A stretch of 63,080 bases of DNA, counting the filler, from Collodictyon triciliatum (taxonomy: Eukaryota): the NCBI GenBank assembly GCA_043381765.1. It is 25 parts of 25 records of this genome, joined end to end, with 100 filler letters (N's around TTAATTAATTAA, not from the genome) between each part and the next. Parts side by side here need not be neighbours in the genome. Positions count along the whole stretch, not along the records: positions 17,735 to 20,163 come from JBHJMP010008904.1; positions 20,264 to 22,666 come from JBHJMP010008905.1; 23 more parts are not named here. One strand, given 5' to 3'. Position 1 is the first letter of the stretch, and each line of letters opens with the position of its first letter. The notes below the pieces were generated by a model, which saw nothing but the letters and a program-made list of their open reading frames with translations, made no database searches and had not been told where the DNA came from. Shown here piece after piece: positions 17,635-22,666 of the stretch. The translations under genes were made by a program, and so were the position numbers.

Positions 17635-17736
17635 NNNNNNNNNNNNNNNNNNNNNNNNNNNNNNNNNNNNNNNNNNNNTTAATTAATTAANNNNNNNNNN
17701 NNNNNNNNNNNNNNNNNNNNNNNNNNNNNNNNNNAA

Positions 17737-19995
17737 AAGGAACTACCGGAATTTTCCAATCAAGACGCAAACAAAGTATTAAAAGTCGATCCGAGCGGGG
17801 TTTATCTACAGTGGCTGCAGGAGACGACGACACCGGCTGAGCTGCCTAGCCAAGCGGGGAACAGTGGCCGACTACTCACTACCAACGGGTCAGTGCCGTC
17901 GTGGACTAATGCGCCATCAGTTAGTTCTCTCACTTGTTCAGGAAATTTATTTTTTACAGGTAATACTGGTCAAATGAGGAGGTCTGATAATGTAAATATA
18001 AATTTATACGAAGAAGGGTTTACCCGACAAATATCATTAAATGTAGGTTCTAATCCGGCCACAAGAAGAAAATTGTTTCTAACTGATAGTGAATTTACTG
18101 TTGAAAATAGCTTATTATTTGTTTCCGATTCGTCACGAATTCACGCAATTGCAGGCATACTAAATCTACCCACAGCTGGCACTGCATCAGCCCCGTCTTT
18201 GATGTTTGGAGACAATACTGCAACTCCGGCTGCTAGCCGAACAGGTATTTGGGGCGCAGACAATGCGATAAATTTTAGCACAAACGGAGTTAATAGATTT
18301 ACGGTAAATGATAATGGCGTAAATTCTGAATCTCGTTTTATAGCCTCTAGAGGTCTCGCAATTAGTAACGGATACTCGTTTAACGGAACGGACATTTCAG
18401 GGCTATATGCGAGTACTACTGACAGAACAATGCATTTAATTAGTAATACTGTCCCTGTATTAAGTGTGTTGAACACGGGTGGAGCTGGAGGCACTGGTGG
18501 GACTAGTACAGCAACAGTCAACGGGGACCTTACCGTGACGGGGCAATGTACAATTCCCGATGTTGTTTATCCATTTGATGTATTTACAAGCACAGGATCA
18601 GTTGCCGATTTTACACTTGCTCAAAATACTAGATCCAATGTCAGACTGGAAATGGATACATTTAATACAATACTTAGATTCCCTGCTTTAGTAGAAGGCA
18701 CATTTTACAGAATAGTACCGTTTCGTAATGGTACTACAGCAACATTGTCCTTTAGACCTGCAAACAGTGTAATTATGCATTTGTATAGTGGAGGGAGTAG
18801 ATCAACAGTTACCGGAAATGCCGGTGGAACAATTGGCTATTCTATTTTGCCTGGCACGTTTTACGAGTGTTTATTCAGCAGTGGAGCGTGGTATGTAGTC
18901 GCCGGGCATCCCGTTAGTACTTCTGCATTTACCTCTGATGTTAGTGTCGGAGGGGCTCTTAGTGTGACTGGAAATTTAACGGCATCTCAACAGATCATTC
19001 AACCATTTACTGGAGTTAATGTAACTGCCAACAGTCAAACTTTCGACCTCATCTCTACAATGAGTGGCAATGTTGTAATTCTTATGGGGACTTTTACACC
19101 TGTGACAGTTAGATTTAATACGTCTGGCTTTGTAAGTGGCAGTCAGTTTGATTTAATACCACATAGTAATTTAACAGGTGCTGTTCTTAATTTTACGGTA
19201 ACAGGGGGTGCTACTTTACGAATTTATCAAGGAGGTCTCGTGACTACTCATAGTGCGCCAGTTGCTGTTTCAAAAGACACGACGTATCGCTGTGAGTTTC
19301 ACGACAATATTTGGTACATAACATCGAATTTTGTATCAGGCAATGCAAATTTCCCAGGAACAGTTACAGCTATTGGGTTCAGTTCATCAGGTAGTGCATC
19401 AATCACAAATAATTTAACCGTCGGTGGATACGTTGATACGAATCACGTAAGAATACCCGCGGGTCAAGAAGTTCGGTTTGGTACAACTGATTCGTTAACA
19501 AATTGTGTCAGAGGCGGAACAGAAAGCGGTGAATTTTTTGTTAGTGTGACAGTCAACGCGCTTCGAAATGTAATTTTTAGACCTACTTTATGCTCATTTG
19601 AAAAAAGTATTGAACAATTAAAATGTCCAATCCAAGAGTTTGATACATATAACACATCAGGAGAAGTAACTCTGGGGGGCGGAAGTCCACCGATAATTTT
19701 TATTAGTCGTCCTACTACTCACAATGTAACCTGCAAATTAATCCTTCCGGTTACCAGTACTTCTAGCATACCAGAAGGATGGACAATTAAAATTATACAC
19801 GTAGACCTGGGTGGTTCAGCGGCGTCTACCGCTGAAGTTCAATTCAAATCAGCAAGTGTAAATTTGTGGGCCGATGGCACACAAACAGCTTTTAATGCTG
19901 ATGAGTCTAAAATTATTCCAGTTGGTTCAGTCTGGACAATTATGAACCACAAGGGACTGGGCAAGTGGTATGTAACAGGTTGGTCTAAACCGTAA
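17737..19995 (+). CDS. Virus fibre/spike-like protein, 5'-partial (>750 aa; frame open to the contig edge), intronless
   Basis: Fibre-type motifs LPSQAGNSGRLLTTNGSVPSW, GTASAPSLMFGD..TGIWGADNAINFSTNGVNRFTV and VxGxLxVxG repeats; G/S/T/N-rich; three related beta-rich modules ending in WY[VI]. Confidence 0.72.
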   Translation, partial: KELPEFSNQDANKVLKVDPSGVYLQWLQETTTPAELPSQAGNSGRLLTTNGSVPSWTNAPSVSSLTCSGNLFFTGNTGQMRRSDNVNINLYEEGFTRQISLNVGSNPATRRKLFLTDSEFTVENSLLFVSDSSRIHAIAGILNLPTAGTASAPSLMFGDNTATPAASRTGIWGADNAINFSTNGVNRFTVNDNGVNSESRFIASRGLAISNGYSFNGTDISGLYASTTDRTMHLISNTVPVLSVLNTGGAGGTGGTSTATVNGDLTVTGQCTIPDVVYPFDVFTSTGSVADFTLAQNTRSNVRLEMDTFNTILRFPALVEGTFYRIVPFRNGTTATLSFRPANSVIMHLYSGGSRSTVTGNAGGTIGYSILPGTFYECLFSSGAWYVVAGHPVSTSAFTSDVSVGGALSVTGNLTASQQIIQPFTGVNVTANSQTFDLISTMSGNVVILMGTFTPVTVRFNTSGFVSGSQFDLIPHSNLTGAVLNFTVTGGATLRIYQGGLVTTHSAPVAVSKDTTYRCEFHDNIWYITSNFVSGNANFPGTVTAIGFSSSGSASITNNLTVGGYVDTNHVRIPAGQEVRFGTTDSLTNCVRGGTESGEFFVSVTVNALRNVIFRPTLCSFEKSIEQLKCPIQEFDTYNTSGEVTLGGGSPPIIFISRPTTHNVTCKLILPVTSTSSIPEGWTIKIIHVDLGGSAASTAEVQFKSASVNLWADGTQTAFNADESKIIPVGSVWTIMNHKGLGKWYVTGWSKP

Positions 19996-19996
19996 G

Positions 19997-22425: not shown

Positions 22426-22454
22426 ACAATTGTTATTATAATAAAAATTGTTTA
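22423..22454. terminator. AT-rich intergenic hairpin between convergent genes (copy 2)
   Basis: TAAACAATTGTTATTATAATAAAAATTGTTTA: 32-nt palindrome with 15 of 16 positions complementary; its two ends are the stop codons of the two genes. Confidence 0.78.
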
Positions 22455-22666
22455 TGGACTTACGACACCAATGACATACCAGCGACTGTCTGCTGTTACT
22501 GTGCGACGATAATTTATTACATCAACAACTGTCCCATTTACTAACTCGTTATAATCATTTGCATTCCAGTACGAAACCCCTGTGCGAAACAGATTAACTG
22601 TTTGTGTAGCAAATCTTAAACGGCCTTTGTTATTAATCCAGGTATCATTCATATTGTGGAAAATGA
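22452..22666 (-). CDS. C-terminal fragment of a fibre-like protein, diverged homolog of 17737-19995
   Basis: IFH...LRFATQTVNLFRTG..WNAND..LVNGTVVDVINY...RWYVIGVVSP* aligns with IIH...VQFKSASVNLWADG..FNADE..IPVGSVWTIMNH...KWYVTGWSKP*; same position relative to the hairpin. Confidence 0.72.

Follow-up and report, generated by a model that had tools for sequence, protein, structure and literature searches.

Polinton-like viruses (PLVs) are reported from aquatic metagenomes and protist genomes (Yutin et al. 2015; Bellas and Sommaruga 2021, PMC7805220). These viruses have genomes of about 14-40 kb and encode a double jelly-roll capsid protein, an A32-type ATPase, a helicase instead of pPolB and occasionally an rve integrase; they show no detectable maturation protease and occur in fresh water. 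All of these features are shared by the virus lineage described here, as are the large fibre genes with phage-like elements reported for PLVs (PMC12220804). Thousands of aquatic PLVs have been catalogued, and their descriptions agree with the gene set presented below (PMC7805220; bioRxiv 10.64898/2026.06.19.733378). In this study, the lineage was approached from two contigs of the GenBank assembly GCA_043381765.1 of Collodictyon triciliatum, i.e. contig A (positions 17735-20163) and contig B (20264-22666) of a 63,080-nt stretch of DNA (the window, meaning the whole stretch that was analysed). Each of them carries parts of two convergent genes, a fibre-like gene and a very long gene for a coiled-coil protein, which meet at a palindromic hairpin. 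With a probability of roughly 0.85, contig A and contig B each represent a fragment of a different genome, and the two diverged genomes belong to a single freshwater lineage of double jelly-roll double-stranded DNA (dsDNA) viruses of approximately 17 kb, of the PLV kind.

Two other groups of viruses are close enough to be compared. The virophages Sputnik and mavirus (Maveriviricetes) resemble the lineage in their small dsDNA genome, double jelly-roll fold and A32 ATPase (mavirus also in its rve integrase), and also in promoter-like motifs near start codons and in gene-end hairpins, which for Sputnik and mavirus are reported as signals borrowed from giant viruses (PMC6723459). The lineage differs from virophages in that its capsid protein has no sequence match to theirs, protease and pPolB genes were not found, and it has no known helper virus. 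Polintons/Mavericks and adintoviruses also have an rve integrase and a capsid module of the same fold class; in contrast to them, the lineage showed neither pPolB nor an adenain-type protease in the open reading frames (ORFs) scanned, and it comes from environmental fresh water instead of animal genomes. A further parallel is that "Fiber" genes of related midsize linear dsDNA viruses were annotated from coiled-coil or phage-fibre similarity (PMC8502044). The lineage was likened to PLVs by published descriptions, and it departs from them in two respects: (i) none of 10 fibres examined with Pfam contained the endosialidase chaperone, laminin G or collagen repeats that are reported as common in PLV fibres (PMC12220804), and (ii) its coiled-coil gene of approximately 1000-1370 aa occupies up to one quarter of the genome, a kind of PLV gene on which a narrow literature search listed no paper.

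The window consists of 28 sequence stretches, most of approximately 2.4 kb, separated by runs of N (a fixed linker), and since it is such a chain of joined contigs, the neighbours of contigs A and B are uninformative on linkage. The two copies of the locus lie in opposite orientation within the window and comprise the following features:

17737-19995, plus strand: fibre-like gene (P0002), 5'-open at the start of contig A; translation of 752 codons, stop codon at 19993-19995.
19997-20029, no strand: palindrome (hairpin) between the convergent genes of contig A; from sequence, alignment and fold.
20030-20161, minus strand: last 44 codons of the coiled-coil gene of contig A (P0004), cut at the contig end; from the match to the end of P0003.
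20266-22425, plus strand: coiled-coil, Gly-Pro-rich gene of contig B (P0003), 5'-truncated; translation of 719 codons plus stop.
21547-21594, plus strand: in-frame 12-nt repeat (G-N-P-F repeats) in the low-complexity region of P0003; from Tandem Repeats Finder (TRF).
21676-22422, plus strand: conserved C-terminal domain of P0003, 249 residues; from alignments.
22423-22454, no strand: palindrome of contig B; from sequence, a 32/32 match to positions 10641-10672 of the metagenomic locus L005 (see below) and fold.
22455-22664, minus strand: final 70 codons of a fibre gene that has another terminal module (P0005), cut at the end of contig B; from a weak match to the end of P0002.

The 44 residues encoded at the end of contig A align without gaps to the last 44 residues of the coiled-coil protein of contig B, with 31/44 identical and 40/44 positive positions (E 9e-22), and the same homology was recovered by tblastn inside the window (E 6e-16). 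The alignment of the partial fibre of contig B with the end of the contig A fibre is weak (14/53 identical, E 0.001 in a single comparison); it is credible because a module of one kind, ending in a W-aromatic/aliphatic motif, is found at the end of every fibre homologue retrieved. Within the 44-codon overlap, different codons are used at 20 of the 31 identical residues, nucleotide identity is 81/132, and the differences are distributed over the three codon positions as 10/10/31 (31 of 51 at the third), with a non-synonymous divergence (dN) of 0.25 and a saturated synonymous divergence (dS). The codon-position pattern, the dN/dS relation and the differing codons point to diverged elements, and not to alleles or to one locus assembled twice. 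Judged from these alignments, the locus is present in two diverged copies, one on each contig, and has been under purifying selection. An initial annotation of this DNA had proposed two diverged copies of a locus in which a fibre gene and a coiled-coil gene converge on a hairpin, had placed a diverged fibre C-terminus at the end of contig B, and had read the differing codons as consistent with purifying selection. The convergent genes, their matching ends (31/44) and the conserved palindrome bear out the first of these proposals, the weak terminal match sustains the second, and the substitution pattern agrees with the third.

Both contigs stand apart from their neighbours in the window, as that annotation had also noted for microsatellites and coding density. 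Tandem repeats are absent from contig A and limited in contig B to the in-frame coding repeat listed above (TRF), whereas the ends of most neighbouring contigs are microsatellites or homopolymers. The ORFs of 752 and 719 codons exceed the longest stop-free frames of the neighbouring contigs, which reach approximately 290 codons (three contigs excepted), and most of the other window contigs resemble repeat-rich eukaryotic DNA.

The hairpin recognized in the initial annotation proved to be real and conserved. Its arms (TAAACAATT and AATTGTTTA) are invariant in 6/6 aligned loci, and in comparison with shuffled sequence it folds at -8.4 kcal/mol (z -3.2) in contig A and at -6.6 kcal/mol (z -2.3) in contig B. 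Across the palindrome, the two contigs share 85% identity over 72 nt (blastn), and the 32 nt of contig B are all identical to those of L005. The stop codon of the coiled-coil gene forms the outer triplet of one arm in contigs A and B as well as in the metagenomic loci L004, L005 and L007 (in contig A, the right arm closes with this codon at 20027-20029, minus strand), and the fibre stop codon forms the outer triplet of the other arm in contig B and L007. In contig B, both stop codons (22423-22425, plus, and 22452-22454, minus) are thus the outer three bases of the palindrome arms. Such a hairpin would act as the 3'-end signal of both convergent transcripts.

A scan of metagenome contigs provided seven loci related to the window contigs, of which L004 (14.8 kb), L005 (16.4 kb) and L007 (12.9 kb) were used for gene content. 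Their common gene order is: an approximately 780-aa helicase gene, a 240-aa ORF of ATPase size, an approximately 115-aa ORF, a 254-267-aa ORF, the fibre gene, the palindrome, the coiled-coil gene (on the strand opposite to the fibre) and another approximately 115-aa ORF. This last ORF is followed by a capsid gene in L005 (533 aa) and in L004 (cut by the contig end), while L007 stops earlier. Metagenome contigs that carry fibre and capsid relatives recur at sizes of 16.4-17.2 kb.

Pfam searches assigned three of the hallmark functions. These are: (i) Pox_A32 on the 240-aa product of L005:6501-7223, the ORF of this kind that was scanned (E 1.5e-9, 38.1 bits, cut-off 22.8), (ii) DUF5906, an SF3 helicase, on the approximately 780-aa genes (E 4.7e-13 and 1.8e-16) and (iii) the rve integrase on L004:51-1307 (E 7.5e-12, 45.9 bits, cut-off 32.6). 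The 533-aa protein (L005:14645-16243) has 133 representative relatives at E <= 0.001, and its AlphaFold2 model, built with 39 relatives, reached a predicted local distance difference test (pLDDT) score of 75.5 and a predicted template modelling (pTM) score of 0.77. Foldseek matched this model in the PDB to the capsid proteins of Singapore grouper iridovirus (5e-17), Paramecium bursaria chlorella virus 1 (PBCV-1; 9e-15), Sputnik (1.9e-14) and mavirus (6e-11), and the named matches in BFVD were nearly all capsid proteins of eukaryotic viruses. The neighbours of the protein in the ESM Atlas are mostly viral and most commonly belong to Preplasmiviricota, which is treated as a lead only. According to the structural model, the 533-aa protein of L005 is a double jelly-roll capsid protein. 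In the same locus, the largest non-coding gap (L005:5325-5524), beside the helicase gene, contains a 65-nt inverted repeat (89% complementary, copies 70 nt apart) and a nested 48-nt palindrome, and this could be a replication origin.

The window contigs are placed in the lineage of these relatives because contig A matches L005 at 88% of nucleotides over 1.5 kb, the palindrome is identical, the convergent gene pair recurs and the proteins are homologous. The gene set, in turn, is that of PLVs because it unites a double jelly-roll capsid protein, an A32 ATPase, a helicase and an optional rve integrase in approximately 17 kb, with no detectable protease. The lineage therefore belongs to a known and abundant kind of virus. 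Contigs A and B would cover the same point of its structural block, at which the fibre gene meets the very long gene and both converge on the hairpin. The initial annotation had suggested a virophage or Polinton-like family; the hallmark genes of L004, L005 and L007 favour the PLV kind, whereas the strict virophage part is not retained, since 0/40 members of the capsid family match a Pfam capsid family and no protease was detected. Its further suggestion of an undescribed family is not supported, thousands of aquatic PLVs being catalogued already. Among the hallmarks which that annotation proposed to look for in extended sequence, the double jelly-roll capsid protein, the A32 ATPase and the rve integrase were found in the relatives; searches of these three incomplete loci revealed neither pPolB nor terminal inverted repeats. 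No polymerase B family was seen in the ORFs scanned of L004, L005 and L007, and because these contigs are incomplete, absence of pPolB is not proven; in the same ORFs, no protease family exceeded its cut-off, the only trace being a sub-threshold Peptidase_C15 match (E 0.0028).

Several observations weigh against the assignment to PLVs. The window contains no hallmark virus gene and neither gene start, so the classification rests on the relatives, and the other window contigs gave no match when compared with all ORFs of these relatives. For the capsid protein and its 39 relatives, Pfam searches at E <= 0.001 gave no capsid family, virophage models included, the L005 protein itself has no Pfam family even at E <= 1, and the capsid profile reaches the PBCV-1 capsid chain at E 0.033 only. 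The 254-267-aa ORF just upstream of the fibre gene is a penton candidate by size and position only, with no PDB profile match (0), no Pfam family and no PHROGs family. Neither terminal inverted repeats nor a circular overlap were found in L004, L005 or L007, all of which are incomplete. Two further points of this kind are taken up below, namely a fibre motif shared with a tailed phage and the way in which a promoter-like motif was defined. Prokaryotic elements, too, are known to carry A32-type ATPases, rve integrases and DUF5906 helicases.

The fibre gene is the more variable member of the convergent pair. In a large protein database it has 18 relatives at E <= 0.001, all of them metagenomic and either unnamed or "hypothetical protein". 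Approximately 60 N-terminal residues are nearly invariant among these relatives and the remainder consists of exchangeable modules, in which blocks recur in varied combinations and at least 6 different terminal modules were distinguished. The label "fibre" is used because of the position of the gene after a penton-sized ORF, the composition of its product (rich in Gly, Thr, Ser and Asn) and this pattern of variation; Pfam, PHROGs and PDB (profile search) hold no family for it, the Pfam search of the 10 fibres gave nothing, and the window proteins P0002 and P0003 received sub-threshold matches only from Pfam and PHROGs. From position 789 to 2296 (window 18523-20030), contig A shares 88% nucleotide identity with L005, through the palindrome, while its 5' end is 86-93% identical to L004, L006, L007 and L008. 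By these comparisons, the contig A gene is a mosaic, whose 5' end is nearest to the latter four loci and whose last 1.5 kb are nearest to L005. In 4/4 sequencing runs examined, metagenome contigs matched contig A at 95-100% over parts of its length and then diverged or carried a replaced block; at one such joint, 1471 nt are skipped and 1200 other letters stand instead. Module swapping of this type, as read from the alignments, is the behaviour of a receptor-binding protein, and the fibre would be such a protein, with a conserved N-terminus and swappable distal modules. Module exchange among variants makes the gene a natural system for the study of host-range evolution in PLVs.

Parts of contig A were detected in 20 runs of 12 studies (word shares of 0.15-0.40). 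Wherever the source of a run is recorded, it is a freshwater, wetland, aquatic or outdoor metagenome, and no run of a named organism and no RNA run was listed among them. This distribution bears on whether contigs A and B might be two diverged endogenous proviruses of the PLV lineage residing in the sequenced eukaryote, and not co-sequenced virus, which we consider rather unlikely. In favour of integration are the rve integrase encoded in the lineage (L004), the presence of two diverged copies within one assembly and the reported integration and expansion of PLVs in protist genomes (PMC12220804; PMC7805220). Against it, there is no host junction on either contig, pieces 95-100% identical to contig A occur in metagenomes of several studies, and both contigs break inside coding sequence, whereas most other contigs end at microsatellites. 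Breakage inside genes instead of repeats fits a strain mixture or a mixed virus population. Both ORFs are intact over 2.2 kb, which suits an endogenous and a free state alike. As viral sequences, contigs A and B should be kept out of host gene counts as long as no host junction has been demonstrated.

It is very unlikely that the lineage represents true virophages (class Maveriviricetes) and not PLVs. An A32 ATPase, an SF3 helicase, an rve integrase and a genome of this size are likewise known in virophages (PMC7805220; PMC6723459), the capsids of Sputnik (1.9e-14) and mavirus (6e-11) are among the fold matches, and the gene-end hairpins and fixed promoter-like motif recall virophage gene signals. 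However, the 40 capsid-family members include none that matches a Pfam capsid model, those of virophages included, giant-virus capsids outrank virophage capsids in both fold searches (PDB and BFVD), and no cysteine protease family was found in the ORFs scanned.

An origin from a tailed phage or another prokaryotic element, with a tail fibre and a tape-measure-like coiled-coil protein, is highly improbable. The IMG/VR scan with the fibre alignment gave a single match, confined to the N-terminal motif, in a 629-aa virion protein (L001:3781-5669) which carries the double motif at 44% over 49 residues; this counts for a tailed phage and against the assignment to PLVs, and at the same time it agrees with the description of PLV fibres as phage-like (PMC12220804). 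The contig concerned is a tailed-phage record of IMG/VR with terminase, portal and head protease genes recognized by PHROGs. Convergent genes with a hairpin also resemble an intrinsic terminator, but the palindrome is A+T-rich and no T tract follows it. Further evidence opposes a phage origin: (i) neither the fibre nor the coiled-coil protein has a match among 50,697 phage records, (ii) PHROGs holds no family for the window proteins or for 4 ORFs of L005, (iii) fibre relatives are absent from prokaryotes (one genome per species, 185,579 species), (iv) the 533-aa double jelly-roll protein of the relatives matches capsids of eukaryotic viruses and (v) no Shine-Dalgarno-like purine run near start codons was seen by eye in 29 upstream regions, no formal count being made. 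Points (iii) and (iv) are at the same time indirect hints of a eukaryotic host. IMG/VR scans with a single fibre or coiled-coil protein, or with the coiled-coil alignment, gave no match. The outcome that the initial annotation had named as contrary to its proposal was not encountered, as Pfam detected no terminase, portal or HK97 capsid in the ORFs scanned of L004, L005 and L007, and neither phage records nor prokaryotes yielded relatives of the window proteins and the fibre, respectively. A giant-virus (Nucleocytoviricota) genome as the source of the contigs can hardly be entertained, for even though the capsid fold is nearest to giant-virus capsids and A+T-rich gene-end hairpins are a Mimivirus trait (PMC6723459), fibre and capsid relatives stand together on contigs recurring at 16.4-17.2 kb, and in the related loci the genes for replication, integration, packaging and capsid fit within less than 17 kb.

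The second gene of the pair encodes the coiled-coil protein. All seven copies follow a common plan: a variable N-terminal part, a charged stretch (250-400 residues) in which Glu, Lys, Arg, Gln and Leu abound and which matches coiled coils only, a Pro/Gly/Ala-rich low-complexity stretch of very variable length and a C-terminal domain of approximately 200 residues, of which the last approximately 90 are the best conserved part. In P0003, residues 1-240 (approximately) are charged and heptad-like, approximately 300-470 are Pro/Gly-rich and of low complexity, and 471-719 form the conserved domain. This domain aligns with 7 homologues, and the large protein database contains three metagenomic relatives of it (P0006-P0008, E 1e-31 to 1e-29). 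The full genes of L004, L005 and L007 encode 1188-1368 aa, and the fragment at the end of contig A is identical to the L007 protein at 39/44 positions (88.6%).

Searches for a known fold or family returned little. The AlphaFold2 model of the C-terminal domain (pLDDT 49) was too poor for a fold search, the ESM Atlas gave no usable match for this domain, a PDB profile search found coiled-coil proteins only, and family searches gave weak coiled-coil matches. None of the papers listed by a narrow literature search deals, judged by title, with a PLV coiled-coil protein. Two sets of DNA-binding modules, AP2/integrase-type for a strand-strand-strand-helix unit at the C-terminus and SAP-like at the N-termini, were dropped, as 0/8 end pieces matched them in Pfam even at E <= 10. 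NPF motifs were likewise rejected as endocytic ligands: P0003 contains four of them and the 6 homologues none, the 12-nt repeat being specific to the window copy. In L005, the Pro/Ala/Gly-rich part (L005:11392-12494, minus strand) consists of nested DNA repeats, including a 129-nt unit present three times (two of them 99% alike), which suggests that the low-complexity linker of this gene grows by recent duplication.

With up to a quarter of a 17-kb genome devoted to it, this gene must matter to the virus. Since it lies in the structural block, occupies this share of the genome and shows a fibre-like pattern of conservation, the coiled-coil protein is tentatively regarded, at somewhat less than even odds, as part of the virion, held there by its conserved C-terminus while the coiled coil points outward. 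Alternatively, it may be an internal protein, genome-associated or size-determining, or a non-structural tether to the virus factory. In any case, a large conserved coiled-coil protein without a family offers a handle on the lineage.

Expression signals were sought in the relatives. The motif WWWWTCTKB begins exactly 17 nt before ATG at 10 of 29 gene starts in L004, L005 and L007, with an expectation of approximately 0.6 hits per locus anywhere in a 28-nt interval. Among the genes with the motif at this position are the fibre gene, the penton candidate, one of two capsid genes and small ORFs. This result is treated as a lead, because the motif was defined after viewing the very same sequences, a circumstance that weakens the case for the lineage as interpreted here. 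Motif sites lie at L005:7568-7603, 8406-8426 and 14614-14645 and in the same places in L004 and L007, some of them paired back to back between divergent genes. In the three loci, the helicase, ATPase, fibre and coiled-coil genes have hairpins (stems of 11-16 bp) at their 3' ends or close to them.

Comparable signals are described in virophages, in which genes of Sputnik and mavirus carry the late promoters of their giant viruses, and a hairpin polyadenylation signal of the Mimivirus type is found at the ends of 16 Sputnik genes (PMC6723459). A narrow literature search for a late promoter with TCTA in mavirus found no paper. In the PLV lineage, the structural genes may be driven by a short promoter-like motif with constant spacing to the start codon, and together with the hairpins this would imply that, as in virophages, transcription depends on the apparatus of a giant virus, so that the lineage may be expressed in a giant-virus factory. 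A more elaborate proposal is that of an uncatalogued freshwater PLV lineage which is read by giant-virus machinery (17-nt promoter, hairpin 3' ends) and whose coiled-coil protein represents a new class of virion-anchored filaments, conserved only at the C-terminal anchor and co-evolving with a cassette-swapping fibre; taken as a whole, this is speculative and distinctly unlikely. Expression signals fixed in position could be matched to the promoters of candidate helper giant viruses and would thus allow virus-virus pairings to be predicted.

In the other contigs of the window, the few longer frames have Pfam matches just to leucine-rich repeats (LRR), the FkbM methyltransferase and similar families. 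Three of these contigs are of separate interest. The first, with 45% G+C, contains a stop-free frame of 524 codons (5463-7034, minus strand) encoding an FkbM-type methyltransferase domain (E 5.4e-10), unusually long for the window. The second (32870-35294) has 60% G+C and, spread over both strands, stop-free frames of 737, 659 and 500 codons, the longest of which has no Pfam family, and may be a G+C-rich repeat or foreign DNA. The third contains a 50-bp satellite (25296-26137; 16.8 copies, 93% match), which makes up one third of the contig and yields a spurious open frame of 284 codons.

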